Part shown: positions 35,912-53,896 of the stretch, piece by piece
Layout of the letters: each line of letters starts with the position of its first letter
How positions within the stretch are numbered: position 1 is the first letter of the stretch
NCBI GenBank assembly: GCA_902575065.1
Contig: CACGPU010000005.1
Location: 7,901 to 71,900, forward strand
Direction of reading: 5' to 3'
From: an uncultured Alphaproteobacteria bacterium
GTDB lineage: Bacteria; Pseudomonadota; Alphaproteobacteria; HIMB59
Length of the DNA: 64,000 bases
The notes under the pieces: generated by a model
What the model saw: only the letters and a program-made list of their open reading frames with translations
Told to the model about the DNA's origin: nothing
The model's database searches: none
Translations under genes and position numbers: made by a program

Positions 35912-35967
35912 ATTTAAGTATTCTTTAAAAGGTTTATTTATTTATAATCTTTCTTGAGGAGGGGTTT

Positions 35968-36879
35968 ATGAAAGCAAAATTGGGAATAGCACCCATAGCA
36001 TGGTCCAATGATGATTTACCTGAACTTGGAGGAGAGACTTCTTTGGATACCTGCCTTAGTGAGTCAAAACTTGCTGGATTTAGAGGTGTGGAAACAGGTG
36101 GAAAATTTCCAAAAACTCCTGAAAAACTTGGTCCAATTTTAAAAAATCACAAATTATACCTGGCATCAGGGTGGTATTCAGGAACTGTGCTCGATAATGA
36201 CCTAGAAAATGAAAAAGATAAAGTCCTTCAACAACTCACTCTCTTCAGAGACCTAGGCGCAGCAGTTTTAGCATATGGAGAAACATCTGGAACTATCCAA
36301 AATATTAGAAATGCTCCTTTAAACACAAAAAGAAAAATACACAGTGAGGACTTTAGAGAGTATGGAAGAAAACTAACATTATTTGCAGAATTTTGCGCAG
36401 ATTTTGGTGTGCCAATTTCATTTCATCATCACATGGGTACAGCGATTGAGACTGAGGATGAGCTTGATAAATTGATGAACCACACAGGTGAGGCAGTAAA
36501 AATCTTATTTGACACAGGCCATATGACCTTTGCAGGAGGCAACTCTTTGAGAGTAATAAATAAATATGCAAAAAGAATAAATCACTTTCATGCTAAAGAC
36601 ATTCGTTCAAAGGTTGTAAATGATTTAGATCGATCAAAAAAAAGTTTTTTAGATTTTGTGTTAGAAGGGGCTTTCACAGTACCTGGAGATGGAAATATTA
36701 ATTTTAAGGAAGTAGTTGAGACATTATCAAATAATAACTACGAGGGATGGTTCATTGTCGAGGCAGAGCAAGATCCTGCCAAAGCAAACCCATTTGAATA
36801 CGCTAAAATTGGAAATAAAGAACTTGTAGAGTGCTTAAGTATGTATGGATATGAGATAGAGGATTATAGAGATGAATAG
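35968..36879 (+). CDS. iolE: myo-inosose-2 dehydratase
   Basis: GIAPIAWSNDD, SGWYS, HHHMGT, DTGH, HAKD, FTVPGDG, VEAEQDP. Confidence 0.95.
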   Translation: MKAKLGIAPIAWSNDDLPELGGETSLDTCLSESKLAGFRGVETGGKFPKTPEKLGPILKNHKLYLASGWYSGTVLDNDLENEKDKVLQQLTLFRDLGAAVLAYGETSGTIQNIRNAPLNTKRKIHSEDFREYGRKLTLFAEFCADFGVPISFHHHMGTAIETEDELDKLMNHTGEAVKILFDTGHMTFAGGNSLRVINKYAKRINHFHAKDIRSKVVNDLDRSKKSFLDFVLEGAFTVPGDGNINFKEVVETLSNNNYEGWFIVEAEQDPAKANPFEYAKIGNKELVECLSMYGYEIEDYRDE

Positions 36880-37690
36880 TATTAAGGGAAAGTTTGCACT
36901 AGTGACTGGAGGAACACAAGGTTTAGGGGCAGCAATCGCAAAAAATTTTGCTGATAGCGGAGCTGAAGGTGTTGTCACAATTGGTAGAAAAGAAGATAAA
37001 GGAAATGAGGTAGCAAAAAAAATTCAAGATGAAACTGGATGTAAAGTAATTTTTGTAAAAACAGACCTAGGAGAGGTCCAAGAGTGTAGAAATGCAGTTT
37101 CAGTTGCCAAACAAGAATTTGGGAGATTGGATGTTCTTGTTAACGCTGCCGGTATTACTGATAGGGGAGATATTGTTAATACGAGCGAAGAATTATTCGA
37201 TAAAATGATAGGTACCAACTTAAAAGGTCCTTATTTTTTAATTCAAGATACTGTGAAAATTATGATTGAACAAAACATAGAGGGTTCAATAATTAATATT
37301 GGATCTGTAGCAGCTATGACTGGCCAACCATTCATATCAACTTATTGTGTATCAAAGGGGGCTCTTGCAACATTAACTAGAAATACAGCATTCGCATTAT
37401 TAAAAAATAAAATAAGAGTTAATCAATTAAATATTGGTTGGATGGCTTCGGATGGAGAGCATGAGATTCAAACAAAATATCATGGCGCCTCAGAAAATTG
37501 GCTAGAAGATGCTGGTAAAGCTCAACCATTTGGAAGATTGCTTGATCCAAAGGAGGTAGCTAAAGCAGTAACATTTTTAGCATCTGATGACTCAGGTATG
37601 ATGACAGGTTCTGTTGTAAACTTTGATCAGTCGGTGTGGGGAGGGTATCCTTTTGCACCACCTCAGCCCGCAGAAAAAATGGAAATATAA
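36872..37690 (+). CDS. SDR oxidoreductase (iol-cluster type)
   Basis: TGGTQGLG, VNAAG, YCVSK, NIGWM. Confidence 0.9.
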   Translation: MNSIKGKFALVTGGTQGLGAAIAKNFADSGAEGVVTIGRKEDKGNEVAKKIQDETGCKVIFVKTDLGEVQECRNAVSVAKQEFGRLDVLVNAAGITDRGDIVNTSEELFDKMIGTNLKGPYFLIQDTVKIMIEQNIEGSIINIGSVAAMTGQPFISTYCVSKGALATLTRNTAFALLKNKIRVNQLNIGWMASDGEHEIQTKYHGASENWLEDAGKAQPFGRLLDPKEVAKAVTFLASDDSGMMTGSVVNFDQSVWGGYPFAPPQPAEKMEI

Positions 37691-37694: not shown

Positions 37695-39380
37695 TTAATT
37701 TAAATATTTTTCGGCACTTTGTTGACAACTTTTTAGTGTAGCTTCCAAATCCTTATTCAAAAAAATATACTCATAAATTTTATGACCAACATCTTCAATA
37801 ATATTTGAATAGGTCGGTAGAGGATATCTTGCCCACTCTATAATTTTTTCCTCCTTTTCCATTTTATCAATTTCATTAAATATTGGACTTAGAGCTCTTA
37901 CTTCAGGATCATTAACGACACTAAAAACGGGAGATGATAAACTGCCATGTTCGATATAATATTTTATAAACTCAGGAGAGACAAAATTTCGAATATTTTT
38001 CATAACAAAAGGTATTTTTTCAGGAGAGATATTTGAAGGTATACCCAACGAAAACCCACCTATTGGAGATACTTGAAAAGAGGAATTTCCAGCTGGCCTA
38101 GGTAAATAACCAGTTTTCTTGTATGCGGGTGAAGCCTCATTTAGTTCAAACAAATGTGCTCTACTACTCCAATTCATTACCATTGCTGATTTACCCTGGC
38201 TATAATATTCAACGCATTCATCATTGGAATGAGCAGATAGCTCGTTTGGCGAGTATGCTGTCAATTTTTTCAACATTTTTGCTGCCTCAAAAGATGCATC
38301 AGATAAAAAATTTGCCTTTAAAAGTGTTTTTTCTACGTCCAAATCATAAATATTTTTTCCAATGTACCTTAAGTTTACATATGGTTTTCCATAATTTGCC
38401 ATAGCTAATATAAAACTAGTAGCAAGTGGTTGTCCTTTTTTAGCTGGCCAAGAAATAGGACTTTCTATCTGTTTATCAGCTTTTAATACATCACAGGCAC
38501 AGAGCAAATCCTGAAATGTTTTTGGTGGACTCAAAGCATATTTTTGAAAAATATCTGTTCTATAAAATAATAGATCAGGAATTGCCTCGATTGGTATCCC
38601 ATAAAGTTTTTTATTAAAAGAACTTGACCTTACTCCTGAATAGTGAAAGTCATTTAAATTTATCCCAACATCTTTAACAAAATTATTTAAAGGAAGAAGG
38701 CAATTTAATTTAGTTAACTGTCCAATCCATGGAATATTAAAAGCAATAATGTCAAATTTAGACTTTTTATTTGATGAGGAATTTTTAATTATTTCATTAA
38801 GTAGTTTATTCAAATCACCTTCTATAGTAAGTTCAATTTCACAATCAAGTATATATTCAAAAAAATCAATATTCTTATTTATTACTTTAAATGTGGGATT
38901 ATCATTGGCAAGAAAGTTAATTTTTTTATATTTTTTATTTTGATTAATTATAACATTTGGTGCAGGTATAATATTTCCTGCGGATAAGGATGTTCCAAAA
39001 AAATAATTGTCATTAAAATCGCTGTAACCTAAGTTCAAGGCCACCTCTTTTTTGATAGAAAGTAAATAATCTGTGAATTCTTTAATAAGATTACTACTTG
39101 GATGAATAGAGAAAGATTTACCTGACTTAGTTTTTGATCTTTGAATTAATTTTTTTTCTTGAATGAGTTTTTTTACTCTTCTCAAACCAGTTGCAAATGG
39201 CAAACCTGATGCCTGTATGATACTCGTAGTAGTGGTAATTTTATTGTCAAGATGGTTGATGATGACATAAGAAAAAATATTCCAATCAGCGTCAATTGTT
39301 TTAATTGAAATAGATCTGTTAAATAAAAGTCTCGTTTTATCTACGAATTTTAAAAGAGTGATTATCTCGTTTCTATTCAT
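37695..39380 (-). CDS. putative one-component regulator: N-terminal winged HTH fused to family-1 solute-binding domain
   Basis: No signal peptide. N-terminal TTTSIIQASGLPFATGLRRVKKL...KSGKSFSIHPS looks like a wHTH. C-terminal LYGIP, LFYRTDIF, PPKTF, GKSAM..NW, GGFSLGIP looks like SBP_bac_1. Divergent from the ABC operon. Confidence 0.75.
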   Translation of the reverse strand: MNRNEIITLLKFVDKTRLLFNRSISIKTIDADWNIFSYVIINHLDNKITTTTSIIQASGLPFATGLRRVKKLIQEKKLIQRSKTKSGKSFSIHPSSNLIKEFTDYLLSIKKEVALNLGYSDFNDNYFFGTSLSAGNIIPAPNVIINQNKKYKKINFLANDNPTFKVINKNIDFFEYILDCEIELTIEGDLNKLLNEIIKNSSSNKKSKFDIIAFNIPWIGQLTKLNCLLPLNNFVKDVGINLNDFHYSGVRSSSFNKKLYGIPIEAIPDLLFYRTDIFQKYALSPPKTFQDLLCACDVLKADKQIESPISWPAKKGQPLATSFILAMANYGKPYVNLRYIGKNIYDLDVEKTLLKANFLSDASFEAAKMLKKLTAYSPNELSAHSNDECVEYYSQGKSAMVMNWSSRAHLFELNEASPAYKKTGYLPRPAGNSSFQVSPIGGFSLGIPSNISPEKIPFVMKNIRNFVSPEFIKYYIEHGSLSSPVFSVVNDPEVRALSPIFNEIDKMEKEEKIIEWARYPLPTYSNIIEDVGHKIYEYIFLNKDLEATLKSCQQSAEKYLN

Positions 39381-39410
39381 TTGAGGGGATTATATTATAA
39401 ATTCATTAAA

Positions 39411-39427
39411 ATATTCAATTTGAATAT
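39411..39427. promoter_or_regulatory. candidate operator (site 2) between regulator and ABC operon
   Basis: Perfect arms ATATTCA-ATT-TGAATAT; centre 39 bp before GATAAT at 39458. Confidence 0.7.
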
Positions 39428-39492
39428 ATTAGAGATTAAATCTCTTAATAAATCATAGATAATTTCCAGATAAGGATATTAGGAGGATCAAT

Positions 39493-40536
39493 ATGAACAA
39501 ACTAATAAAAGTATTAGCTGTTCTAATGTGCTTTTCTTTCGGTTCAGCTAAAGCAGTTGAAATCGTCTCTTTTAACGCTGCATCATCTGAGGCTTATGTT
39601 GGTGCGTTCGTTAAAGGTATTAAAGCTACAGCAGAGCAATATGGCTATGATATTACTGTTTTTGAAAACAACTATAACCAAGCAGAGCAAAACCAACAAG
39701 TAGAACAATACTTGTCAAGTGGCGCACTACCTGATGTATTTATTTGGTGGCCACCTGATGCTGTTGCAGGTTTAGGTTCGTTAAGAAAGCTTGCTAAAAC
39801 TGGAGTACCAGTTTTAAAAATCAATCAGTTACCTAATGAGCAAGATAAGGCATTCATCTTTGGATATGCCGGACCAGATGATAGTCTTCGCGCTTATAAC
39901 GCAGGTGAGATGATGGTTAAAGCTATGAAGATGAAACAAGCTGCTGGTGGAGATGGATATAATGTAATTGCATTATCATATCCTCACTCTTACGGTGGAT
40001 ATGGCTTATCAATAAATGCTTTCAAACAAGCTATCGCTGGAACTGACTTAAATCTTATCGGTGACATCGGTGAGGGATTTGGACAGGCTAACGGTTATAA
40101 AGGAGCAGCTAAGCTAATAGCTAAAGTTAAAGATCAGGGAATTCATTTTGTATATGGTATGGACGACGCGATCTTAACTGGTGGTATTAAGGCTTTAGAA
40201 GAAGCTGGTTATAATGTTGACTGGTATGCAGGTACTGGCAAAAGTGGCAGTGTAGATAGTGATGCTGTTATTACAGTTGGTACTGTGTGTAACGGTGATA
40301 AGCAGATGATTACTGATGGAAAGCAATTTGGTACTACTCTACAATCACCTCTTCATGAAGGTCAATTAGCTATAGCTCTTGTTAAAGAGTACATGGAGAA
40401 CGGTAAGCTAGCAAACTACATTAACTTTACGCCTAACCCTTCAGTGACTGGTGCCACTATGGACTTCACAGCACTTAGAGGCTTTGATGGTAAGTTATAT
40501 GGCATCAACGAGCTTTGCTCAGGTGCTTGGGACTAA
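39493..40536 (+). CDS. sugar-type (Peripla_BP_4-like) ABC substrate-binding protein, divergent
   Basis: Signal peptide ending AKA; GIKATAEQYG, QNQQVE, GVPV, YGMDD, QSP..EG..A; AGGAGG SD; codon usage like the other SBP genes. Confidence 0.8.
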   Translation: MNKLIKVLAVLMCFSFGSAKAVEIVSFNAASSEAYVGAFVKGIKATAEQYGYDITVFENNYNQAEQNQQVEQYLSSGALPDVFIWWPPDAVAGLGSLRKLAKTGVPVLKINQLPNEQDKAFIFGYAGPDDSLRAYNAGEMMVKAMKMKQAAGGDGYNVIALSYPHSYGGYGLSINAFKQAIAGTDLNLIGDIGEGFGQANGYKGAAKLIAKVKDQGIHFVYGMDDAILTGGIKALEEAGYNVDWYAGTGKSGSVDSDAVITVGTVCNGDKQMITDGKQFGTTLQSPLHEGQLAIALVKEYMENGKLANYINFTPNPSVTGATMDFTALRGFDGKLYGINELCSGAWD

Positions 40537-40561
40537 GCTTTAGTCTCTTCATAATAATTTT

Positions 40562-40590
40562 TACACACAGGGGAACCATCCCTGTGTGTA
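40562..40590 (+). terminator. stem-loop after SBP gene
   Basis: TACACACAGGG-GAACCAT-CCCTGTGTGTA, 11-bp perfect stem. Confidence 0.75.
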
Positions 40591-40626
40591 GTTAATAAAT
40601 AAAAAAGGTGTACAATCTCTTTTAAT

Positions 40627-42135
40627 ATGTCCACAAATCCAATTCTCAAAATTTCAAAAGTTTCTAGGACTTTTGGTGCAATACAGGCTCTAAAAGAGGC
40701 AAATTTTGAGATAAATGAAGGTGAAATTATGGGACTAGTTGGAGAAAATGGAGCTGGAAAATCAACTCTTGTAAAAATTATAAGTGGATTTGACCCAGGG
40801 TTTAAAGGCAGCTATCAAATCAATGGTAAAGAAGTAAAATTTGAAACGCCTTCACAAGCAGAGGAGTCTGGCATAGCTATTGCTCAACAAGAATTAAGTT
40901 TGATTCCTAATATGTCAGTCGCAGAAAATATTTTTCTTACTGGGGCTAAAGTAAAAAAATTTGCCACTCTTAATACATTGGCAAAGATGGCACGCCCATA
41001 TCTTGATGAAGTTGGATTAACTGAAGTAGACCCAACTACTAGGATAAATTTATTATCTGTTGGTGAACAACATTTGGTAGAAGTAGCTAGATTAATTTCG
41101 AGAGAAGCAAAAATTTTAATTTTAGATGAGCCTACAGCTGCGTTGGGTGAAGCAGAGAGTCGAAGAATTTTAGAAATGGTTGAGCGTCTTGCAGCAAATG
41201 GTAAATCAATAATATATGTAAGTCATAGACTGGACGAAATTTTTAAGATTACAAAAAGAATAACAATATTAAGAGATGGAGTAAGTCAAGGTATTCAAGA
41301 AACTAAAGATATTGATGTAAATAAACTAGTTGAAATTATGCTTGGAAGAGAATTGGCAAATATGTTCCCATCAAAAGCTGACCATATAAGTGATGATCCA
41401 AAATTAGAAGTAAAAGAACTTTGGCCTGATGGCGTTTTAGAGCCGGTTAGTTTTTCAGCCTTCAAGGGAGAGATACTTGGACTCTCTGGGCAACTTGGTA
41501 GTGGAGCAGGTGAAGTATTAGCCTCAATAGCAGGCGCACTTCAATCTAGATCAGGTTCACTCACTTTGAACGGTGAAACCTTTTTACCAAAATCACCAAG
41601 TCATGCTATAAAGAAAAAAATCGCATATTGCTCCTCCGATAGAAAAAAAGATGGTCTTTTTCTTGGACGTCCAATATTTGAGAATTTAACCTCCCCAGCA
41701 CTTGGTGCTATATCAAAATATGGTTTTAACTTTGGCAGTTCTGAGGATAATTATTCCAAAAATTTAGCAAAAGAGTTCTTAATTGATGTCAAAAGAATGC
41801 ACGATGAGTCAGGTCTTTTAAGTGGCGGAAATCAACAAAAAGTAGCATTAGGAAAATGGCTTTCAATTAAGCCCGATGTATTGCTTGTGAATGAGCCGAC
41901 AAGAGGTGTTGATGTTGGTGCTAAATCAGAGATATATCAAAGAATGAGAGAATTAGCAGCAAGGGGAATTACAATTATTTTTGCCTCTACTGATATCCAA
42001 GAAATCACATATCTTCCTGACAGGGTGATTACATTTTATAGAGGAATGATGATTGATGAACACCGATTAGAAAAAATTAAAACACCTCTTATTCTTAAAG
42101 AGATTACTGACCCATTTAATGAGACAAACCTATGA
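40627..42135 (+). CDS. sugar ABC transporter ATP-binding protein (RbsA/MglA two-domain)
   Basis: GENGAGKS, QELSL, LDEPT, SHRLDE, DRKKDGL, LSGGNQQKV, EPTRGVDVGAK. Confidence 0.93.
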   Translation: MSTNPILKISKVSRTFGAIQALKEANFEINEGEIMGLVGENGAGKSTLVKIISGFDPGFKGSYQINGKEVKFETPSQAEESGIAIAQQELSLIPNMSVAENIFLTGAKVKKFATLNTLAKMARPYLDEVGLTEVDPTTRINLLSVGEQHLVEVARLISREAKILILDEPTAALGEAESRRILEMVERLAANGKSIIYVSHRLDEIFKITKRITILRDGVSQGIQETKDIDVNKLVEIMLGRELANMFPSKADHISDDPKLEVKELWPDGVLEPVSFSAFKGEILGLSGQLGSGAGEVLASIAGALQSRSGSLTLNGETFLPKSPSHAIKKKIAYCSSDRKKDGLFLGRPIFENLTSPALGAISKYGFNFGSSEDNYSKNLAKEFLIDVKRMHDESGLLSGGNQQKVALGKWLSIKPDVLLVNEPTRGVDVGAKSEIYQRMRELAARGITIIFASTDIQEITYLPDRVITFYRGMMIDEHRLEKIKTPLILKEITDPFNETNL

Positions 42136-43172
42136 ATGCTATCATCGAAAATAATCAATTACCTTTTTCTGCAAAATTTCTACAATTCTATAAAGATCGC
42201 ACACTTCTTGCTATTTTGTTGTCACTTTTTGCTGTGATGTTTATATATGGAATTTTTTTCACAGAAAATTATTTAACAATAACCAATTTTAAAGCAATTA
42301 TCAGAGATGCAGCACTATATGGCATTATGGCTATAGGACTTACATTTGTAACTTTGTCAGGAAATTTTTTTTTATTGTCATTAAAAGAAACAGCATCAAT
42401 TTGTGGTGTTACGTTTGCCATGGGTATGGCTACTGGTTTTGGATCACCGGATCTTGCAGGAAACTTTTTAGTTTCACTATTAGCTGCTTTAGCAGTAGGT
42501 GTCGTAAGTGGAGTAATACAAGGATATTTTGTTGGAATGGGAGGCAACCCAATTGTAGTAACATTAGGTGGAGCAGGCATCTTATATGGTATTGGTGCAT
42601 GGTGGAGTGATAACCTTGTAATAAACTTTACTAGACCTCATGATGCAGAATGGTTAGGAACTGGTTCTTTTTTGGGTCTACCAAGTATCACATGGTCTTT
42701 TATTTTAATTGCCATTGCAGCTGAGATAGTTTTAAGACATACAAATTTTGGAAGGAAAGTTTATTTAGTTGGAGCAAACAAAGCTGCTGGAAAAGCCACT
42801 GGCCATGAAAATTTTTCCATGGCGATAATTGTTTTCACAATCTGTTCTGTTTGTTGTGCATTTGTTGCAGTAGCTTTTGTTGCTCAAATGGATAGTGCTC
42901 AATCTAATTATTTTTCTGCAGAATTTGGATCATCAGGTGATATGACAATACTCGTTATAGCAACTGTCATGGTTGGTGGAAATTCAATAATGGGTGGTTA
43001 TGGATCTACTTTAAGAACTAGTTTGGGAGCAATTTTTATTGCTATGGTTGATAATATGATGGTTTTACAAGGATTTAATAGTGGACCTAGAATAGTTGGT
43101 GTGGGCTTAATGATCGTGTTTAGTATCATTGTTTTTGGTTTATTTGCTAAAGGAAGTAGGGCTCAGGAATAA
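42132..43172 (+). CDS. sugar ABC permease
   Basis: Hydrophobic; PIVVTLG, FGRKVYLVGAN, VGGNSIMGGYG. Confidence 0.88.
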   Translation: MNAIIENNQLPFSAKFLQFYKDRTLLAILLSLFAVMFIYGIFFTENYLTITNFKAIIRDAALYGIMAIGLTFVTLSGNFFLLSLKETASICGVTFAMGMATGFGSPDLAGNFLVSLLAALAVGVVSGVIQGYFVGMGGNPIVVTLGGAGILYGIGAWWSDNLVINFTRPHDAEWLGTGSFLGLPSITWSFILIAIAAEIVLRHTNFGRKVYLVGANKAAGKATGHENFSMAIIVFTICSVCCAFVAVAFVAQMDSAQSNYFSAEFGSSGDMTILVIATVMVGGNSIMGGYGSTLRTSLGAIFIAMVDNMMVLQGFNSGPRIVGVGLMIVFSIIVFGLFAKGSRAQE

Positions 43173-44206
43173 TGGAAAATTTTATAAAAAAGATTACAAA
43201 AGACGTAGATCTCTCTTTTGCAATCTTATTATCATTTTGTGTTTACGTATTCTTTGCAATTAATATTGAAGTTTTCTTTAGCCACAATATTAGTTTCGCT
43301 ATTCTTGAAAGGTTTGCAGTCTTGGGTCTTGTAGGTTTAGCATTAACAATTTGTATAATTGCTGGAGAAATTGATTTATCAATTGGGTCCAACGCAGCCC
43401 TATGCGCTGTGATAGTTGTAAAATTAACAGACCCCTTAGGCGCCCCATTAGCGATGATTATAGGACTTTCAGTTTCAACTTTAATCGGTGCAACACAAGG
43501 TTTTGTTATAGCTTTCATAAGAATAAGAGCGATTGTGATTACAGTTGGTACGCTAATGTTGCTCAGAGGTGTGGCTTTACTAATTGCTGAAGAAAAAACA
43601 GTTATGTTAACAGATTTTAGAGTTCCTGATTTTATTACTACTAAAGTTTTAATGTATTTTTCACCTGCTAGCCTAACGGTTATCCTCATATTCATTTGTG
43701 TAGGAATTTTTATGCGTTACACAAAATATGGAAGAGAAATATATGCGATCGGTGGAGCAAGAAAAGAAGCACTCACTGCAGGTATACCTTTAAGACGCCC
43801 AATGATTATAGCCTTTGCCTTGTCAGGTTTTTGTGCCGGTTTTGCTGGAACCGTAATTGGTTTGAAATCAGGGACTGCTCAAGGTTTAGGACTACAATAC
43901 CTTCTTTTAGCAGGAACTGTTGCAGCTTTTGTTGGAGGTGTGAGCATACTAGGAGGAAAGGGTGGTGTTTTAGGAGCAGCTATCGGAGCTTTAACAGTTA
44001 ATTTTTTAAATACTGGTCTCGTATTTTATGCACTTCAGGTCCATTTCGTTCAATTATTCACATCTGTGCTTTTGGTTATAGTTATAGTTTTTCAAACTAT
44101 GTCTAGGGTATTTGACTCTCGGCAAGCTAGGAAGAGTCTGCTTGCCACAATTGATGAACGAAAAACATCTTTGCTAGAAAAAAAGAGATCGGCTTTAGGT
44201 AGATAA
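43172..44206 (+). CDS. sugar ABC permease
   Basis: GEIDLSIGS, YGREIYAIGG, VGGVSILGGKG. Confidence 0.9.
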   Translation: MENFIKKITKDVDLSFAILLSFCVYVFFAINIEVFFSHNISFAILERFAVLGLVGLALTICIIAGEIDLSIGSNAALCAVIVVKLTDPLGAPLAMIIGLSVSTLIGATQGFVIAFIRIRAIVITVGTLMLLRGVALLIAEEKTVMLTDFRVPDFITTKVLMYFSPASLTVILIFICVGIFMRYTKYGREIYAIGGARKEALTAGIPLRRPMIIAFALSGFCAGFAGTVIGLKSGTAQGLGLQYLLLAGTVAAFVGGVSILGGKGGVLGAAIGALTVNFLNTGLVFYALQVHFVQLFTSVLLVIVIVFQTMSRVFDSRQARKSLLATIDERKTSLLEKKRSALGR

Positions 44207-44222
44207 TATTCATTTTGAATAT
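44206..44222. promoter_or_regulatory. candidate operator (site 3) upstream of SDR-M24-E1 operon
   Basis: ATATTCA-TTT-TGAATAT; 19/20 identical to 39411-39430 when the following ATT is included; centre 39 bp before TATAAT at 44253. Confidence 0.7.
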
Positions 44223-44275
44223 ATTTGAAGTCAGTAATTCAAATACATATTATATAATAAAGTTGGAGGAAATTT

Positions 44276-45079
44276 ATGGATAAAGAGAGACTAAAAGGGA
44301 AAAATGTCCTAATTACTGGCGCTGCACAAGGTATGGGCGCTGCAGTAGGCGAGCACTTTGCTGCCCAAGGAGCCAAAATTTGTCTAACAGATGTAAACCT
44401 TGACGGTTGTAAAGAGGTTGAAGAGAGAATTAGGTCAGCTGGAGGTGAGGCTATTTCATGTAAAGTAGACGTGCGAAATCGAGAAGATCACGTAGCTGCT
44501 GTAAAAGCAACAGTTGAAAATTTTGGTAGTCTTAATGTTTCTATAAATAATGCTGGAGTAAACAAACCACTCTTCTTCATGGATATAACTGAGGAAAATT
44601 ATGATTTTATTATGGATATAAATGTTCGAGGAGCTCTTTTAGGTATGCAAGAGCAAGCTCGGCAAATGATTAAACAAGGTAAACAAAAAGAACCATATAA
44701 AATTATTCATGTAGCTTCTATTTTATCCAGGGAAACTTTTGATGATGTTGTGGTTTATGGAATGAGCAAACATGCCATAGCTGCTTTAATAAAAGGTGGT
44801 GCAAAAAGTTTAGTTGAGCATGGCATTACCGTTAATGGATATGGCCCTGGCGTAGTAAGAACAGAGTTATGGGAGCAACTAGATAAAGATTTAGTTGCAA
44901 TTGGAAAATTTGATAAACCCGGAGAGTCAATGGACTCAATTGCAGAGAATATGATTTTGATGAAGAGGTATTCCTATCCTGAAGACGTTGTGGGCACAGC
45001 ATCATTTTTAGCGTCAAGTGAGTCTGATTACATGACAGGACAAATACTTATGATTGATGGAGGAATGGTAATTCAATAA
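44276..45079 (+). CDS. SDR oxidoreductase, acetoin reductase/polyol dehydrogenase-like
   Basis: TGAAQGMG, NNAG, YGMSK, VNGYGPGVVRTELWEQLD (BudC/PolS-like), MTGQ..IDGG. Confidence 0.85.
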   Translation: MDKERLKGKNVLITGAAQGMGAAVGEHFAAQGAKICLTDVNLDGCKEVEERIRSAGGEAISCKVDVRNREDHVAAVKATVENFGSLNVSINNAGVNKPLFFMDITEENYDFIMDINVRGALLGMQEQARQMIKQGKQKEPYKIIHVASILSRETFDDVVVYGMSKHAIAALIKGGAKSLVEHGITVNGYGPGVVRTELWEQLDKDLVAIGKFDKPGESMDSIAENMILMKRYSYPEDVVGTASFLASSESDYMTGQILMIDGGMVIQ

Positions 45080-46369
45080 ATGAGCGAACCTTCAATCATA
45101 AAACCTGAAGATATAAATCCAAATTACGATTGGCATAGAAGAGTACCATCTCATGGAAGAACAAATGTAGATTATGAAGAGAGAATTAACTTTCCTAGAC
45201 TTCACAAATATAGACTGGGAAGAGCTAGAGAGGCTCTAAAAAATTCAAAAGCCGGTTCACTCCTTTGTTTTGATAATAACAACATAAGATATCTCACAAG
45301 CACAGTTATTGGAGAGTGGTCAAGAGACAAAATATGTAGATATTCTCTATTAGCTCAAGACCATGATCCTGTGCTGTGGGATTTCGGTTCAGCTGCTAAA
45401 CATCACCAATTATTTTCGCCTTGGCTTCCAAAAGAAAGTTGGAAGGCAGGGATGGTAGGCTTAAGGGGTACAGTTCATCCTGATGCAGGATTAATGAAAA
45501 ATGCTGCAAAAGAAATAAAATCAATTTTAAATGAGAAGGGATTAGCAAATGAACCCGTAGGTGTGGATCTTGTTGAACCAGCAATGATGTTTGCTCTTCA
45601 AGCAGAGGGTCTAGAGATAATTGATGGACAGCAAATTCTTCTCGAAGCCAGGGAAATAAAATCAAGAGATGAGCTAATGTTATTAAACCAGGCTGCATCG
45701 ATGGTTGATGCAACTTATCATCAAATTTATGAGACTATGAAGCCAGGCGTTAGTGAAGCTCAAATAGTTGCTAATGCAAATAAGCTTTTATACGAACTTG
45801 GTTCAGATGATGTCGAGGCAATAAATGCCATTTCAGGTGAAAGATGTAATCCGCATCCACATAATTTTACAGATAGAATTTTCAGACCTGGTGATCAAGC
45901 TTTCTTTGACATACTTCAATCTTATATGGGCTACAGGACCTGTTATTATAGAACCTTCAATATTGGACGAGCATCAGACTCTCAAAATGATGCCTACAAG
46001 CAGTGTCGAGAGTGGCTAGACAAAGCCATTGAACTTGTAAAACCTGGAGTATCTACAGATAAAATTGCATCAGTATGGCCGAAGGCTGAAGAATTTGGTT
46101 TTGCAAATGAAATGTCAGCATTCGCATTACAGTTTGGACATGGTTTAGGTTTGGCAATTCATGAAAGACCAATAATCAGTAGATTGGTTTCAATGGACTC
46201 ACCTGATGAAATTAAAGAAGGAATGGTTTTTGCTCTTGAAACCTATTGTCCTGCAAAAGATGGTTATTCTGCTGCAAGAATTGAAGAAGAATTGATTGTT
46301 ACTGATAAAGGATGCCAAGTAATTTCCTTGTTCCCTGCTGAAGATCTACCTATTGCTTATAAATATTAA
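45080..46369 (+). CDS. M24 (pita-bread fold) hydrolase with creatinase-type N-domain
   Basis: NIRY, AREIKS..E, FFD277, GYRTC288YYRT, GHGLGLAIHE, ALETY, ARIEEE. Confidence 0.85.
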   Translation: MSEPSIIKPEDINPNYDWHRRVPSHGRTNVDYEERINFPRLHKYRLGRAREALKNSKAGSLLCFDNNNIRYLTSTVIGEWSRDKICRYSLLAQDHDPVLWDFGSAAKHHQLFSPWLPKESWKAGMVGLRGTVHPDAGLMKNAAKEIKSILNEKGLANEPVGVDLVEPAMMFALQAEGLEIIDGQQILLEAREIKSRDELMLLNQAASMVDATYHQIYETMKPGVSEAQIVANANKLLYELGSDDVEAINAISGERCNPHPHNFTDRIFRPGDQAFFDILQSYMGYRTCYYRTFNIGRASDSQNDAYKQCREWLDKAIELVKPGVSTDKIASVWPKAEEFGFANEMSAFALQFGHGLGLAIHERPIISRLVSMDSPDEIKEGMVFALETYCPAKDGYSAARIEEELIVTDKGCQVISLFPAEDLPIAYKY

Positions 46370-47373
46370 TGGTAGATAAATTAAATGACGATATAGGGGA
46401 AGAGAAAAGACTTCAATTATGGGAAATGATGCTGAAATTAAGGTTAGTCGAAAAAAAAGCATATGATCTTTTTCTTCAAAATCTTATCAAAGGTACTAGC
46501 CATTTAGCTCTGGGTCAGGAAGCTATCGCAGGTGCCTTTGGAGTCGCCTTGAAACAAGGCGATTATACATTTTGCACATACCGTGGGCACGCACATACAC
46601 TCGCAAGAGGATCCTCAATCGAAGGAGTTTTAGGAGAATTAATGGGTAGACAGTGTGGCTTGATGAAAGGTAAAGGAGGATCCATGCACCTTACAGATGT
46701 AGATAAAGGAGTTATGGGTTCATATGCAATTATAGGTGCTCATTTAACTATAGCCAATGGAACTGCTTTAGCATCAAAATATAATAAAACAAATGAGGTA
46801 AGCGTTTGCTTTTTTGGAGACGGTACTACGAATATCGGAGCATTCCATGAGGCATTGAACATGGCAAAAATATGGAATTTACCCATAGTGTTTGTTTGTG
46901 AAAATAATTTATATATGGAATATACACCAATTCATGAAGTTACTGCTGTTGAGCACCCAGCTGCTGATAGAGCAGGCGCATACGATTTAGATAAAATTAT
47001 TGTGGACGGAAATGATGCTGATGAAATGCTTAGAACAGCAGAAAAAGCTATTTCAAAAGCGAGAGAGGGTAAAGGTCCAAGTTTAATTGAAGCCAAGACT
47101 TATCGACATAGTGGGCATTCAAGAGCTGACCCAGGTAAGTACAGACCTGATGAGGAAGTAAAAGACTGGATGGAAAACAAAGACCCAATAAAAAATTACA
47201 GAGCAAAGTTATTAGATTTTAATATCAATGAAAAAATAATTTCTGAAATTGAGGAGAAAATTAAAGATCAAGTTGAAAAAGCAACTGAAATTTCCATGGC
47301 TTCTCCAATTCCAGAAATTAAAGAAATATATACTGATGTATGGGCTAATGGAGGTTCTGAGTGGCACAATTAA
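46369..47373 (+). CDS. TPP-dependent dehydrogenase E1 alpha (acetoin/pyruvate dehydrogenase family)
   Basis: GQEA, TYRGH, GKGGSMH, GDGTTN...CENN TPP motif, TYRHSGHSRAD. Confidence 0.92.
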   Translation: MVDKLNDDIGEEKRLQLWEMMLKLRLVEKKAYDLFLQNLIKGTSHLALGQEAIAGAFGVALKQGDYTFCTYRGHAHTLARGSSIEGVLGELMGRQCGLMKGKGGSMHLTDVDKGVMGSYAIIGAHLTIANGTALASKYNKTNEVSVCFFGDGTTNIGAFHEALNMAKIWNLPIVFVCENNLYMEYTPIHEVTAVEHPAADRAGAYDLDKIIVDGNDADEMLRTAEKAISKAREGKGPSLIEAKTYRHSGHSRADPGKYRPDEEVKDWMENKDPIKNYRAKLLDFNINEKIISEIEEKIKDQVEKATEISMASPIPEIKEIYTDVWANGGSEWHN

Positions 47374-48344
47374 CATACAGAGCAAGTGTTTCACTCGCTA
47401 TAGCTCAATCCATGAGAAAGGATCAAAAAGTATTTTTTATAGGTGAAGACGTAGGTGCTGCGGGTGGAGTATTTAAAGCGACGGTTGGTCTTTTAGAGGA
47501 GTTTGGTAAAGAGAGAGTCATGGATGCACCAATTTCAGAACAAGCGATTTTAGGTGCAGCTATGGGCGCAGCAATGACAGGCTTAAGACCAATTGCAGAA
47601 ATAATGTTTTCAGATTTTTTAGCTGTTTGTTGGGATATTGTGGCAAATCAAATTGCTAAAACTAGATATATGTCAGATGGCCAAATTAATATTCCATTGG
47701 TCATTAGGACTGCAAATGGTGGAGGATCAAAATTTGGTGCACAACATTCTCAAAGTTTAGAAAATTGGTCTATGATGATACCAGGTTTAAAAGTAGTCGC
47801 ACCAAGCTGCCCTAGTGATGTGTTGGGTTTGATGGATAGCGCTGTAAAGGACCCCGATCCTGTTATATTTTATGAACATAAATCACTTTATGCATTTAAA
47901 GAAGAAATTGAAAAAACTGATTTATTCATTCCTATCGGGGAGGCTAATACGATTCACGAGGGAAAAGATATTACTATTATTGGTCTAGCTTTAATGGCAC
48001 AAAGAGCAAAAGATGCTGCATTAATTTTGAAAGACAAACATGATATCAATGCAAAGGTAATCGATCTGAGATCTCTAGTGCCCCTAGATTTACAAACAAT
48101 AAAAAAATCTGTAATCGAGACAGGTCATGTCATGACAGTAGAAGAAAATCCAAGACTTTGTGGATGGGGAGCAGAAATATCATCTTTAATTTCAGAACAT
48201 TGTTTTAAAAATTTAAAAGGCCCTGTCACTAGAGTAACTACACCACACGTACCATTACCAAGTGCCGACATACTCGAAGATAATACAATTCCCTCAGTGG
48301 AACTAATTGTAAATGAGGTAATAAAAAAACTAAAAGGAGAATAA
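47361..48344 (+). CDS. TPP-dependent dehydrogenase E1 beta
   Basis: GEDVG..GGVF, PISEQ, EIMFSDF, GAQHSQ, DLRSL.PLD; GTG start. Confidence 0.92.
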   Translation: MAQLTYRASVSLAIAQSMRKDQKVFFIGEDVGAAGGVFKATVGLLEEFGKERVMDAPISEQAILGAAMGAAMTGLRPIAEIMFSDFLAVCWDIVANQIAKTRYMSDGQINIPLVIRTANGGGSKFGAQHSQSLENWSMMIPGLKVVAPSCPSDVLGLMDSAVKDPDPVIFYEHKSLYAFKEEIEKTDLFIPIGEANTIHEGKDITIIGLALMAQRAKDAALILKDKHDINAKVIDLRSLVPLDLQTIKKSVIETGHVMTVEENPRLCGWGAEISSLISEHCFKNLKGPVTRVTTPHVPLPSADILEDNTIPSVELIVNEVIKKLKGE

Positions 48345-48346
48345 TT

Positions 48347-48574
48347 ATGGAAATAATAATGCCATCCCTTGGAGAAACTGTTGACGAGGGAAAAGTAGTA
48401 AAGTGGCTTAAAAAAGTCGGAGATGAAATAAAAGAGGGAGATATACTTTGTGAAGTTGAGACTGATAAGACAGCTGCCGAGATACCCTCAACTGTCAATG
48501 GAAAATTAACAGAGATAATTGCACAAGAGGGAGATACGATCCCTGTAGGTGGTAAAATTGCCACTGTAGAATAA
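48347..48574 (+). CDS. stand-alone lipoyl-carrier domain
   Basis: MPSLGETV, W.KKVGD, EVETDKT lipoyl-Lys motif. Own SD (AAGGAG), ends in tandem TAA stops; 75 aa. Confidence 0.88.
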   Translation: MEIIMPSLGETVDEGKVVKWLKKVGDEIKEGDILCEVETDKTAAEIPSTVNGKLTEIIAQEGDTIPVGGKIATVE

Positions 48575-48598
48575 TAATTAAAACTGTTATAAATATTT

Positions 48599-50056
48599 AT
48601 GGAAATTAAAGACTCAAAATTTTATAGAGATAAGTGCTACATTAACGGTGAATGGGTTAATGCCGACTCGGGTGAGACAATATCTGTTAACAATCCAGCT
48701 AACTTGAAAGAGATTGGCACTGTCCCTAAGTGCGGAACATCTGAAACTAGAAATGCTATAGAAGCAGCAAATAATGCTTGGCCTGAATGGAAGGCAAAAT
48801 CTGCACGTCAAAGATCAGAAATACTCAGAAAATGGTTTGATTTAATGATTGAACATAAAGAAGAATTAGCTCAAATCATGACAGTTGAACAAGGAAAACC
48901 AATAAATGAGTCACGCGGAGAAATAGGCTATGGAGCCTCTTTTGTAGAATGGTTCTCAGAAGAAGCAAAGAGGGTTTATGGAGATACAATTCCAGATCCC
49001 ATGACCGATCGAAGAATTGTTGTTTTGAAGCAACCAGTTGGTGTAGTGGCATCTATTACACCATGGAATTTTCCTAATGCTATGATTACAAGAAAATGTG
49101 CACCAGCTTTAGCTGTTGGGTGCCCAGTTGTAATTAAACCAGCAAGTCAAACTCCTTATTCTGCACTCGCACTAGCTGTTTTGGCTGAGGAGGCAGGTTT
49201 CCCAAAAGGAACTTTAAATGTAATTACAGGAAAGGCCTCTGAAATCGGAGAGGAATTAGCCACAAATCCAATTGTCAGAAAATTATCTTTTACAGGCTCA
49301 ACAGAAATTGGAAAAATACTTTTACAGAAATGTTCTGGAACTGTAAAAAAAGTCTCAATGGAACTTGGTGGTCACGCACCCTTCATTGTATTTAATGATG
49401 CAAATATTGATGATGCAGTTGCGGGTGCAATCCAAAGCAAATTTAGAAATACAGGACAAACTTGTGTTTGTGCAAATAGAATTTATGTCCAAGAAAAAGT
49501 TCATGATGAGTTCTGTTCAAAATTTGTTGATGCTGTCTCTAAAATAAAAGTAGGAGATGGTTTAAATGAGGAAAATGCCTCTGGACCCATGATTGATGAG
49601 CACTCTTTAAGTAAAGTAGAGGAGCATGTCCAAGATGCATTACAATATGGCGCAAAAGTTGCAATTGGTGGATCTAAACATTCTTTGGGAATGAACTTTT
49701 ATCAGCCTACAATCCTCACTGAAGTCCCACCAGAAGCAAAAATTACAACTGAAGAAACATTTGGGCCAGTGGCTCCAATATACAAATTTAAAGATGAAAA
49801 AGAAGTAATTAAACTCGCAAATAACTCACCATATGGACTTGCATCCTATTTTTATTCCAGAGATATCGGAAGAATATGGAGAGTTGCTGAGGCACTTGAA
49901 TACGGAATGGTTGGAGTCAATACTGGATTAACTTCAAAAGCAGAGGCACCATTTGGAGGAATAAAAGAGTCTGGTCTTGGCAGAGAAGGCTCAAAGTATG
50001 GAATTGATGATTTTATTGAAATAAAATACATCAATATGTGCGGCCTAGACAAATAA
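48599..50056 (+). CDS. gabD: NAD(P)-dependent succinate-semialdehyde dehydrogenase-type ALDH
   Basis: ITPWNFP, KPA, FTGSTEIG, ELGGHAP, GQTCVCANR, EETFGP, PFGGIKESGLGREGS. Confidence 0.88.
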   Translation: MEIKDSKFYRDKCYINGEWVNADSGETISVNNPANLKEIGTVPKCGTSETRNAIEAANNAWPEWKAKSARQRSEILRKWFDLMIEHKEELAQIMTVEQGKPINESRGEIGYGASFVEWFSEEAKRVYGDTIPDPMTDRRIVVLKQPVGVVASITPWNFPNAMITRKCAPALAVGCPVVIKPASQTPYSALALAVLAEEAGFPKGTLNVITGKASEIGEELATNPIVRKLSFTGSTEIGKILLQKCSGTVKKVSMELGGHAPFIVFNDANIDDAVAGAIQSKFRNTGQTCVCANRIYVQEKVHDEFCSKFVDAVSKIKVGDGLNEENASGPMIDEHSLSKVEEHVQDALQYGAKVAIGGSKHSLGMNFYQPTILTEVPPEAKITTEETFGPVAPIYKFKDEKEVIKLANNSPYGLASYFYSRDIGRIWRVAEALEYGMVGVNTGLTSKAEAPFGGIKESGLGREGSKYGIDDFIEIKYINMCGLDK

Positions 50057-50065: not shown

Positions 50066-51223
50066 ATGAACAAAGTCTTTAATGTTGGCTTAATAGGATG
50101 TGGTCATATTTCTGAAACATATTTTAGAGGACATGATTATTTTAATAATTTTCGCATAATTAAATGTGCTGATATTAATCATGAAAATTCTAAAAAATGT
50201 GCCGAAACTTATAATATAAACTCTTGTTCTGTTGATGAAATATTAAATGATAGTGAAGTCGATATTATTTTAAATTTAACTATTCCAAAGGCTCATTACG
50301 AGGTAGCAAAAAATTCGCTGGAGAGTGGTAAACATGTTTATAGTGAGAAACCAATGGCTGTAAATTTTTTAGATGGTGAAAATCTCTTAAAATTATCTAA
50401 AAGTAAAAACTTATACATTGGCAATGCTCCTGATACTTTTTTGGGTGGTGGAATTCAAAAATCTATTGAATTAATAAACGATAATAAAATTGGAAATGTT
50501 CGACTTGGAAATGCGATTTTTGCTTATCCAGGAGTTCAATCTTATCATCCCAATCCTGAACCATGGTTTGCAAATAATGAAGGTGGCCCAGTTATAGATA
50601 TGGGACCATACTATTTAACAGCTTTAGTAAATTTACTTGGCCCTGCTAAAAGCGTTCATGGTATTTCTACCAAAGTTTTCGATAAAAGAGTTATAGGCAT
50701 AGGTCCAAAAAAAGATCAGGAGTTTGATGTGGAATGTCAAACTAGCTATTTAGTTAATTTAGAATTTCATAATGGGGCTTTAATTCAAATAACTTTATCG
50801 TTTGATGTTGTAGCTCACCAACGTAATCACATAGAGCTTTACGGCGATAAAGGTTCTATGATTGTGCCTGATCCAAATATGTTTGGAGGCTCAGTATACA
50901 CAAGTACTGATGATAGTGGTGTTTGGCAAGAACACAAAACTGATGATATGCCCCTTGGTAAAATTAATATTACATCTCATAGCGGTAGGGCTAATGAGTC
51001 GCCAACTAATGCGAACTACCGTGGTGTCGGATTAGCTGAAATGGCATACTGTATTGATAATGAACTTGAACACAGATGTAGCGGAGAATTATCGTTACAC
51101 GTTTTGGATATTATTCAATCAACAATGAAGGCAGCAGACACCAAAACACCCCAAGAGATAAAGACTACTTTTAAGAAGGCAGATTATTTTTCACAAGAGG
51201 AAATACAAAAAATTCTTAAGTAA
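50066..51223 (+). CDS. Gfo/Idh/MocA family oxidoreductase
   Basis: GCGHIS, LNLTIP, SEKP, APDTFLG, GGPVIDMGPYY, VPDPN.FGG. Confidence 0.9.
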   Translation: MNKVFNVGLIGCGHISETYFRGHDYFNNFRIIKCADINHENSKKCAETYNINSCSVDEILNDSEVDIILNLTIPKAHYEVAKNSLESGKHVYSEKPMAVNFLDGENLLKLSKSKNLYIGNAPDTFLGGGIQKSIELINDNKIGNVRLGNAIFAYPGVQSYHPNPEPWFANNEGGPVIDMGPYYLTALVNLLGPAKSVHGISTKVFDKRVIGIGPKKDQEFDVECQTSYLVNLEFHNGALIQITLSFDVVAHQRNHIELYGDKGSMIVPDPNMFGGSVYTSTDDSGVWQEHKTDDMPLGKINITSHSGRANESPTNANYRGVGLAEMAYCIDNELEHRCSGELSLHVLDIIQSTMKAADTKTPQEIKTTFKKADYFSQEEIQKILK

Positions 51224-51257
51224 TTACAATAATTCCTCTAGACTTAATTTTCATTAA

Positions 51258-52220
51258 ATGAAATTTGATAATACAAAAAAAATTCTTGTAATAGGGAGAG
51301 CAGGATTAGATATTTATCCAGAGCCACCCGGTACAAAAATCTCCGATGTAAATAACTTTTCTTCTCATTTAGGGGGCTCGGCGGCAAATACTTGTGTTGC
51401 TCTATCAAACTTGGGTGTCAGCACTGATTTACTTACTTGTATATCTGACGATGCAATCGGAGAATACATAATTAACAAACTTAATGAATTCAAAGTTGGT
51501 GTAGAACACTGCAGAAAAGTTAATAAATCATTTCAAACACAAATAGCTGTTGTTGAAACTATTTTAAAAAATAACCAATCTATTCTTTACAGAAGTAATC
51601 CTTGTGATCTACAACTTAATAAGGAGGATATTAATAAAATTAATTTTAATAATTACTCTGCAGTATTCATCTCTGGAACTGCGCTTTCAGGAGAACCTTC
51701 AAGGAATGCTGTTTTGGTTGCCTCAAAACTAACTTCAGATCTCAAGATACCATTAATAATCGATCTTGATTATCGGCCTTACAACTGGGAGTCTGATACA
51801 ATCAAATCAGATGTTTATAAGGAAATTATGAATGAAATGGATATTATCATTGGAAACGATTTGGAATTTAATGTGGCTGATAATTCCACAAATGGACTTG
51901 AATTAGCAAAAGTGTATATTAAAAAAAAACCATCAGTAATTGTCTATAAAATGGGCGAAGAGGGATCTAAAGTATTTACTAAAGAAAATGAGAGCCAATA
52001 CGGGACATTCAATGTCGAAGCTATTAAACCCACGGGTGCAGGCGACGCATTCAATGGAGGTTTTATAAGCTCCCTATACAATGGCCTTAGTTTAGAGGAT
52101 GCAGTAATTCGGGGTTCCGCAAATGCTGCAATAGTTGTAACAAGAGTAGGTTGTTCCTCAGCTATGCCCAACAATCAGGAATTAGAAAAATTTATTAACC
52201 AAAATCAAAAGGAGTTATAG
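51258..52220 (+). CDS. iolC: 5-dehydro-2-deoxygluconokinase (PfkB domain only)
   Basis: GRAGLDIY, GGSAAN, DLDYRP, GND.EF, KPTGAGDAF; directly upstream of iolB. Confidence 0.88.
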   Translation: MKFDNTKKILVIGRAGLDIYPEPPGTKISDVNNFSSHLGGSAANTCVALSNLGVSTDLLTCISDDAIGEYIINKLNEFKVGVEHCRKVNKSFQTQIAVVETILKNNQSILYRSNPCDLQLNKEDINKINFNNYSAVFISGTALSGEPSRNAVLVASKLTSDLKIPLIIDLDYRPYNWESDTIKSDVYKEIMNEMDIIIGNDLEFNVADNSTNGLELAKVYIKKKPSVIVYKMGEEGSKVFTKENESQYGTFNVEAIKPTGAGDAFNGGFISSLYNGLSLEDAVIRGSANAAIVVTRVGCSSAMPNNQELEKFINQNQKEL

Positions 52221-53890: not shown

Positions 53891-53896
53891 TCATTA

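Follow-up and report, generated by a model that had tools for sequence, protein, structure and literature searches.

A conserved catabolic module with a Cys-variant M24 hydrolase in an inositol gene cluster of a marine alphaproteobacterium

Gene content, import, and regulation of the operon

The window analyzed here is a 64,000-nt stretch of DNA from an uncultured marine alphaproteobacterium (assembly GCA_902575065.1, contig CACGPU010000005.1, positions 7,901 to 71,900), which lies on contig C5 of a 1.25-Mb, 85%-complete genome of approximately 33% GC (G000) whose nearest public relatives are the AG-9xx single-cell genomes and a metagenome-assembled genome (MAG) labelled Pelagibacteraceae. We addressed a set of genes at 37695-50056 of this window, which encodes a regulator (REG), an ATP-binding cassette (ABC) importer, a short-chain dehydrogenase/reductase (SDR), a hydrolase of the M24 family, the α and β subunits of a thiamine pyrophosphate (TPP)-dependent E1 dehydrogenase, a lipoyl carrier (LIP), and an aldehyde dehydrogenase (ALDH). 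Our results indicated that these genes form a real and conserved catabolic module, which is biochemically uncharacterized and probably expressed; the operon is of the acetoin/2-oxoacid dehydrogenase type and contains a new class of M24 enzyme. Gene identities were checked against Pfam and NCBIfam models, and every gene was found in the position and family that the original prediction, made from the sequence alone, had assigned to it.

Fifteen plus-strand genes, from the solute-binding protein (SBP) gene to a gene for aldose 1-epimerase (39493-54850), are spaced at intergenic distances of -13 to +90 nt. A promoter and terminator scan along this stretch gave nothing above chance, with no excess of terminator-like signals; by its layout, the stretch is a single predicted catabolic operon beside a divergent regulator. 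At its core, the SDR gene (44276..45079) is followed by the genes for an M24 "pita-bread" hydrolase recognized by Pfam (45080..46369), E1α (46369..47373; PF00676, with the TPP motif GDG..NN intact), E1β (47361..48344; PF02779 and PF02780), a free-standing LIP of 75 aa (48347..48574; Biotin_lipoyl, 81 bits, with an ETDKT motif), and an ALDH of the succinate-semialdehyde dehydrogenase (SSADH) type (48599..50056), all on the plus strand. The best match of the SDR was the acetoin reductase model TIGR02415 (230 bits vs. a cut-off of 304), and the protein resembles butanediol dehydrogenase, diacetyl reductase, and sorbitol dehydrogenase, with 3wye and 1geg as PDB neighbors. The ALDH passed TIGR01780 (729 > 646 bits) and fell below the cut-off of the GabD equivalog NF008415 (779 < 828); its gene is the sole SSADH-like gene in the genome. 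No Pfam or NCBIfam equivalog, and no paper in the literature searched, gave the SDR-M24-E1αβ-lipoyl-ALDH core a pathway, which agrees with the earlier claim that no characterized pathway matches this gene set. In particular, no paper characterizing the module was found in the literature on phloroglucinol and hydroxyhydroquinone, hydroxybenzoquinone cleavage in Azoarcus, mycosporine catabolism, or IolM/IolN of Thermotoga.

The plus-strand genes upstream of SDR encode a CUT2 (ribose-type) ABC importer that consists of an SBP with a Peripla_BP_4 domain and a classical Sec signal peptide (39493..40536), an ABC ATPase with two cassettes (40627..42135, AraG/RbsA-like), and two BPD_transp_2 permeases (42132..44206). 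The ATPase and permeases are of the sugar type and scored below equivalog cut-offs. The SBP matched no NCBIfam equivalog and had only weak PDB matches, to ribose-binding proteins; PDB sequence searches with the SBP, the regulator, and a HIBADH-like protein returned no ligand-informative relatives. Seawater metatranscriptome assemblies from several studies contain the following stretch: six runs from four studies held 44-52% of the sampled words of 44276-51223, and contigs from RNA libraries covered it in all four runs compared, including one contig of 4842 nt that reached from M24 to the start of the GFO oxidoreductase gene. Operon parts without RNA-contig cover were given no weight.

The regulator REG (37695..39380, minus strand) carries an SBP_bac_1/SBP_bac_8 domain and lacks a signal peptide, as expected of a predicted cytoplasmic sensor. 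Pfam recognized the SBP_bac_1 domain alone and gave no match to a helix-turn-helix (HTH). An AlphaFold2 model of the first 150 aa (pLDDT 76.6) had a helix-helix-helix-helix-hairpin-helix topology, and all 50 of its top 50 PDB neighbors in Foldseek were MarR/winged-HTH proteins, at weak scores (E 6e-3 to 4e-2, TM ~0.45). On this model, REG may be read as the fusion of an SBP-fold sensor with an N-terminal MarR-like winged HTH that takes up about aa 1-120. In PDB sequence searches the sensor was nearest to trehalose/maltose-binding proteins, its best matches being binders of neutral sugars, and it also matched, weakly, the sulfoquinovosyl-glycerol binder SmoF. Homologues of REG adjoin the module in Marinobacterium (L072, 33% identity), in Phaeobacter (L117, 31%), and in the relatives L151, L152, and L154. 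In AG-917-M17 (L036), a member of the genus, the space between the ABC operon and SDR-M24 holds an additional GFO-family gene (43% identical to iolG) and a paralogous regulator (40%).

A 14-bp operator-like palindrome, ATTCATTTTGAATA, connects this operon with the adjoining inositol genes. It was observed between iolG and iolE (35897..35910), in the REG/SBP intergenic region (39413..39426), where its position is kept in the loci of the genus, and directly upstream of SDR (44208..44221), where the genus retains it, as does L152 between its REG and SDR genes. These three sites are the only exact copies of ATTCAWTTTGAATA in the whole 1.25-Mb genome; 0.66 copies would be expected by chance in the window with one mismatch allowed. 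The operator sites are thus kept in L152 as well, a relative whose M24 is 87% identical. A fourth copy with one mismatch (ATTCATTTTGTATA) lies at 40141-40154, inside the binding-protein gene. The region 34848..37690 comprises iolG (minus strand; 397 > 355 bits), iolE (plus strand; 392 > 290 bits), and a second SDR gene (plus strand), which share the operator, and both iol genes passed their equivalogs; iolD, on another contig, lacks the palindrome. Since the palindrome is common to the module and iolG/iolE, the module is tied to these two genes by regulation, and we infer that REG binds the palindrome as a repressor-type protein.

Conservation of the module around the M24 protein

To describe the distribution of the module, we compared 73 M24 loci from outside the genus, with neighbors taken within 7-10 kb and clustered on greedy gene calls. 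Within the genus, M24 was 85-99% identical in 20 of 36 genomes, and the sister family yielded no orthologue. Homologues that share 65-75% identity are numerous in Rhodospirillales, Hyphomicrobiales, Woeseiaceae, and Oceanospirillales and also occur on Roseobacter plasmids, and the index of the assembly collection lists one M24 variant in 257 blocks. A HIBADH-family dehydrogenase was present near M24 in more than half of the 73 loci, a LacI regulator was also among the commonest neighbors, E1α/E1β with a full-length E2 occurred in roughly a third, and an SSADH-like ALDH in 11. Thus the module spans Alpha- and Gammaproteobacteria and Roseobacter plasmids, streamlined marine bacteria included, and M24, at 65-72% identity between classes, is its most conserved member. 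SDR orthologues that adjoin M24 showed 73-74% identity in gammaproteobacteria and 57% in Phaeobacter.

The question of whether these genes co-occur elsewhere without an E2, as the original prediction had supposed, was answered in two parts. The gene set did recur, on Roseobacter plasmids, in Marinobacterium and Saccharospirillum, and in many MAGs; the relatives, however, do carry an E2. The plasmids of Phaeobacter inhibens, Marinovum algicola, and Pacificitalea reproduced the architecture of the window nearly gene for gene, in the order SBP-fold regulator, SDR, M24, E1α, E1β, lipoyl protein, SSADH-like ALDH, E2 core, and LpdA (the last annotated in Phaeobacter), with a divergent CUT2 ABC operon that includes a second SDR, and with HIBADH-like and ThuA-like genes in Phaeobacter and Pacificitalea. 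In Marinobacterium nitratireducens and Saccharospirillum salsuginis, the module comprises SDR, M24, ALDH, fused E1, E2, Lpd, and an ABC importer, accompanied in Marinobacterium by the homologous regulator. In L152 and L153 (M24 87% and 86% identical), the order GFO-kinase-isomerase-aldolase follows the module and a Lyx_isomer gene replaces the epimerase gene. These two loci lack the four-gene ABC set at this place.

More importantly, two marine relatives that share their flanking genes and carry orthologous REG-SDR-M24 genes (M24 83% identical to that of the window) differed by a cassette swap. After REG-SDR-M24, one of them carries E1αβ-LIP-ALDH (L154:10293-13988), and the other carries Mannitol_dh-family and Ldh_2-family dehydrogenases (L151:11392-13859). 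Since the two cassettes alternate behind the same upstream genes, they should act on the same M24 product, and thus this product should be, as far as gene exchange can tell, a hydroxy or keto acid of the sugar-acid type.

The M24 protein has the two-domain, full-length architecture of DddP, a creatinase-like N-domain followed by the pita-bread domain. DddP was both its best NCBIfam match (NF043017; 113 vs. 600 bits, below the DddP cut-off) and its best full-length PDB match (4s00, 4rzy, 4b28). Among the M24B metal ligands D, D, H, E, and E, four are kept (D277, H354, E387, and E402) and the second Asp is replaced by Cys288; the five-ligand pattern of Xaa-Pro peptidases and prolidases is therefore incomplete, while the histidines of the NPH/HExP motifs (H259, H261, and H361) are present. 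C288, H259, H261, H354, H361, E387, and E402 were invariant in 12 M24 homologues. Aligned with prolidase and DddP, the window protein has NPH and HERP where DddP has NPW and DEWP, and thus differs from DddP in the Cys at the second metal Asp and in keeping the two hydrolytic histidines. Hydrolytic M24B enzymes such as aminopeptidase P and prolidase act on the scissile carbonyl through the NPH/HExP histidines. Because these are kept, unlike in DddP, the analogy favors hydrolysis of a carbonyl compound by M24 over DddP-type elimination. A search of the ESM Atlas with M24 returned generic M24 names only. A second M24 paralogue of 439 aa (G000:C2:120720-121892; 26% identical to the window M24) occurs in most of the genus genomes and lies approximately 20 kb from iolD.

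The E1 subunits have been less stable in evolution. E1α scored 338 bits on TIGR03182, below the cut-off of 393.85; on the same model, true PdhA of three Alphaproteobacteria scored 509-513 and AcoA from aco operons 289-346. When 37 E1α sequences were placed in a tree, the window protein and 14 other M24-linked alphaproteobacterial E1α formed a clade with 100/100 support, AcoA fell in another clade, and the window clade also stood apart from PdhA, with the deep nodes not settled; the Roseobacter-type E1α grouped weakly with AcoA. By sequence, the window E1α is thus neither PdhA nor clearly AcoA. With housekeeping alphaproteobacterial pyruvate dehydrogenase (PDH), the module shares an α/β E1 with an intact TPP motif and the predicted reductive acylation of a lipoyl domain; it differs in that its E1α shares only 35% identity with the PdhA of the same genome and scores 338 bits on TIGR03182, against ~510 for true PdhA, in its sugar-regulated operon, and in lacking an E2 core and E3 of its own. 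In the gammaproteobacterial and actinobacterial modules, E1 is of the fused type. Non-orthologous E1 types beside the same M24 indicate that E1 was replaced more than once while M24 stayed; on these comparisons, M24 is the defining component, and several PDH/Aco-like enzymes can fill the role of E1.

A similar comparison clarified the position of LIP. No E2 core or E3 is encoded in the window; elsewhere in the genome, the housekeeping pdh and suc loci account for the only two E2 cores and the single lpd. Of 24 genus genomes with a completeness of at least 85%, one of them closed, none had more than two E2 catalytic domains (SucB and the PDH E2). By contrast with the supposed E2-less design, orthologous modules carry a full E2 (L019, L023-25), E2 with E3 (Marinobacterium, L072), or a split E2 with LpdA (Phaeobacter, L117). 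The gammaproteobacterial E2 passes the PDH acetyltransferase equivalog (526 > 445 bits), and the Roseobacter E2 core is also closest to PDH acetyltransferase. In Roseobacters, the carrier is already separate from the E2 core and consists of two tandem lipoyl domains plus ~250 residues without a Pfam match; on pP92_e of Phaeobacter inhibens, a lipoyl protein of 428 aa (L117:15346-16632) and an E2 of 292 aa with E3-binding and catalytic domains only (L117:18089-18967) are separated by the ALDH gene. LIP occupies the same place as this carrier, after E1β and before ALDH. Its best matches were the lipoyl domains of M24-linked E2 proteins (45-55% identity), by a small margin over the genome's own SucB (49%), and a lipoyl gene of identical length, 75 aa, occurs in L152, L153, and L154 (M24 83-87% identical). 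Thus, the absence of E2 is not a property of the system; as gene content indicates, this genus lost the module's own E2 core and Lpd. Given that there are never more than two E2 cores in the genus and a single lpd in this genome, acyl-LIP must be a dead end unless it is served by the housekeeping E2 core and Lpd, and we infer that it is so served. This loss provides a natural test of the sharing of lipoyl proteins between 2-oxoacid dehydrogenase complexes.

Proposed route and competing explanations

Taken together, the gene set is still best fitted by the logic put forward earlier, in which a diol or ketone dehydrogenase is followed by TPP-dependent E1 cleavage and oxidation of a semialdehyde. 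We extended it to a complete route, whose chance of being right we put at somewhat short of even. Through the CUT2 system, the cell would take up a neutral molecule resembling a sugar, probably some cyclitol or polyol, and SDR, aided by the neighboring GFO/IolG-type enzymes, would oxidize it to a ketone or diketone. M24, with metal-activated water, would open or cleave this (di)ketone by hydrolysis of a β-dicarbonyl or lactone type. The resulting keto acid, with an α-hydroxyketone or 2-oxo group, would be cleaved by E1αβ with TPP, so that a C2 acyl unit is placed on LIP, and ALDH would convert the freed ω-aldehyde acid to a dicarboxylate. LIP would be unloaded and re-oxidized by the E2 core of housekeeping PDH or 2-oxoglutarate dehydrogenase and the single Lpd.

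The iolG/iolE operator, the sugar-type sensor and importer, and a precedent in Thermotoga maritima suggest that the substrate in this lineage is of the cyclitol type. In T. maritima, inositol is converted by way of keto-inositol and diketo-inositol to 5-keto-L-gluconate and tagaturonate (cited in PMC5931981). Compared at the level of that pathway description, the module would likewise use a dehydrogenase, a second dehydrogenase, and a ring-opening hydrolase to yield a keto-aldonate; the Mannitol_dh-family (UxaB/UxuB-like) enzyme after M24 in L151 and the iolG/iolE operator of the window fit this likeness. In contrast to the described route, the product in the window would enter TPP/lipoyl cleavage instead of the uronate pathway. 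The anaerobic phloroglucinol pathway (PGR, DPGC, TfD, and TAL; PMC10470551) shows a comparable succession of redox step, opening by a C-C hydrolase, hydroxy-acid dehydrogenase, and C-C cleavage, and a BKACE gene stands beside M24 in two loci (L022 and L037). Unlike that pathway, the window encodes no BKACE and no cyclase-family DPGC, and its importer and sensor are of the sugar type. M24 itself was considered as a dihydrophloroglucinol cyclohydrolase (DPGC) and rejected, because DPGC belongs to the cyclase family (PMC10470551). The BKACE genes (L022:11781-12713 and L037:11343-12275) pass the "3,5-dioxohexanoate:acetyl-CoA acetone transferase" equivalog (553 > 430 bits) and are found no more than two genes downstream of the M24 orthologue, in L037 right next to it, which is a hint that these two organisms have a lower pathway of the triacetate or phloroglucinol type.

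Several observations weigh against the cyclitol route. That a foreign E2 core would service a free lipoyl protein is an assumption. In many soil Alphaproteobacteria, the M24 loci contain no sugar genes, and the neighbors are TctC, Liv- or NitT-type transporters, TauE, TusA, GST, Amidohydro_2, and cyclase genes, so the M24 family may act on a smaller anionic metabolite elsewhere, a caution to which the BKACE loci and an actinobacterial catabolic plasmid also contribute. The exchange of E1 for non-orthologous types across lineages also fits a generic substrate such as pyruvate, and the Roseobacter and gammaproteobacterial modules use an SBP and permeases that are not orthologues of those in the window. 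Finally, contigs assembled from RNA libraries do not establish that the genes share one transcript, and such libraries may include DNA. Further ideas considered on theoretical grounds (AI-2/DPD, ascorbate/2,3-diketogulonate, 6-deoxy-sugar acids, and hydroxyhydroquinone, the last converted to 4-hydroxy-5-oxohexanoate and from there to acetyl plus succinate semialdehyde) are not put forward as claims.

Among the alternatives, we consider sulfonate degradation unlikely. M24 would then act as a DddP-like C-S lyase that frees sulfite or a thiol from a C3 hydroxy acid such as sulfolactate, which SDR or HIBADH together with the GabD-like ALDH would make from 2,3-dihydroxypropane-1-sulfonate or a sulfosugar, and the pyruvate formed would be converted to acetyl units by the PDH-like E1. 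The rank of DddP as the best NCBIfam and full-length PDB match, the presence of TauE, TusA, NitT/TauT-type SBPs, GST, YihU-like HIBADH, and ComC-like Ldh_2 near M24 in other loci, and the weak match of the REG sensor to SmoF are all consistent with this explanation. However, M24 retains the two hydrolytic histidines that DddP has lost and reaches 113 bits against 600 on the DddP model. Neither TauE nor any other sulfite-handling gene was found in the operon or beside it, and both TauE genes that the genome has are on other contigs; a dedicated second pyruvate dehydrogenase would be redundant, and the best matches of the sensor are neutral-sugar binders.

Ordinary catabolism of 2,3-butanediol and acetoin is improbable. 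SDR would be the butanediol dehydrogenase, E1αβ would be AcoAB, ALDH would act on acetaldehyde, and M24 would be an accessory. The module shares several features with the acetoin dehydrogenase system (AcoA/AcoB/AcoC/AcoL): in both, an accessory α/β TPP E1 adjoins a butanediol dehydrogenase-like SDR and a lipoyl-dependent step gives, or would give, an acyl unit and an aldehyde. The nearest solved relatives of SDR are diacetyl/acetoin reductases, E1α at 338 bits on TIGR03182 falls within the AcoA range of 289-346, and the Roseobacter-type E1α leans weakly toward AcoA. Nevertheless, the window E1α belongs to the separate 100/100 clade of M24-linked E1α only, instead of grouping with AcoA; no AcoC-type E2 (NF011457) was matched in the G000 genome, and AcoC and AcoL are absent from the operon. 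The window instead has a 75-aa stand-alone carrier, M24, a sugar ABC importer, and an ALDH of the SSADH subfamily. A high-affinity sugar-type importer with a sugar-SBP sensor is ill-suited to a small neutral diol, the alternative Mannitol_dh and Ldh_2 cassette cannot process acetoin, and no member of the module is better conserved than M24, the supposed accessory.

We regard as similarly improbable that M24 is a C-N hydrolase, which would strip an amine or amidine from an amino-cyclitol, a mycosporine-type enaminone, or an intermediate derived from an N-heterocycle before E1 and ALDH cleave the skeleton. Non-peptidase M24 enzymes such as creatinase and ectoine hydrolase do hydrolyze amidines, and genes for RidA, amidase, aminotransferase, hydantoinase, and Liv-type amino-acid ABC transporters occur near M24 in several loci; yet the window operon has no deaminase, transaminase, or RidA gene, creatinase and ectoine hydrolase were only weak matches of M24 (42 bits), and the literature searched offered no support. 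A separate case is the plasmid NZ_CP101190 of Paenarthrobacter ureafaciens SD-1 (L118/L120), a 42-kb catabolic plasmid on which an M24 homologue (55% identity) has as neighbors a fused E1, E2, VOC, amidase, Liv-type ABC, RidA, cupin, HIBADH-like dehydrogenase, and flavin reductase, a setting that suggests the catabolism of aromatic or N-compounds.

The mechanism originally proposed, an E2-independent system in which M24 hydrolyzes the acyl-lipoyl thioester on the free carrier, now appears very improbable. The operon does lack an E2 core and E3, the genus genomes examined contain no third E2 core, and M24 is translationally coupled to E1α. However, in most E1-containing loci the M24 orthologues sit with a complete E2, or with E2 and Lpd, and M24 is also found without any E1 or lipoyl gene (L151 and many M24 plus HIBADH loci). 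Its function thus cannot depend on the free carrier, and by this comparison release of the acyl group from LIP by M24 is unlikely. Equally hard to sustain is a role of the module in the IolD and IolA steps of the classical myo-inositol pathway, with E1 as a surrogate of IolD: the module is embedded in and co-transcribed with iol genes and has its operator in common with iolG/iolE, iolD being without one, but iolD (contig C2, 753 > 715 bits) and mmsA/iolA (contig C10, 528 > 448 bits) are encoded elsewhere in the genome, so that the classical pathway is complete without the module and E1 was rejected as an IolD substitute, no module gene matched the iolD or iolA models, and L151, L154, the Roseobacter plasmids, and most other loci have the module without iol genes.

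If the cyclitol route is followed to its furthest consequence, the Cys-variant M24 proteins would be a new class of metal-dependent C-C hydrolases acting on β-dicarbonyl compounds and opening rings. Combined with an acetoin dehydrogenase-like E1 and with a diffusible lipoyl carrier served by the housekeeping E2/E3, they would make up an oxygen-independent pathway, not known before, by which abundant marine bacterioplankton and Roseobacters degrade carbocyclic polyols (inositol isomers and deoxy-inositols) or benzenetriol-type compounds; we consider this full proposal rather doubtful. In any case, solving the module would assign a function to a large group of proteins mis-annotated as "Xaa-Pro peptidase", reveal the role of an M24 site with a Cys ligand, and identify a compound in the dissolved organic pool, possibly some cyclitol, for which streamlined ocean bacteria maintain a dedicated high-affinity import system.

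Flanking inositol genes and a second importer

Inositol genes flank the module on both sides, with iolG and iolE upstream and, downstream, genes for a GFO oxidoreductase, an iolC-like kinase, an iolB-like isomerase, and a class II aldolase, followed by the aldose 1-epimerase gene (together 50066..54850, plus strand). The gaps of 0-34 nt between these downstream genes indicate, by gene coupling, that they are co-transcribed. The iolC-like gene (51258-52220, plus strand; 297.5 vs. 300 bits) and the iolB-like gene (52221-53063, plus strand; 159 vs. 205 bits) scored below their equivalogs, and each is single-copy in the genome; presumably they encode a functional IolC and IolB or serve a related substrate. 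On the other side, an HpcH/HpaI-family aldolase gene adjoins iolG. A second CUT2 importer is encoded at 30553-33941 of the window; its SBP resembles the model for the binding protein of rhizopine, an inositol derivative (237 vs. 420 bits), and its permease is a single, unusually long protein of 529 aa.

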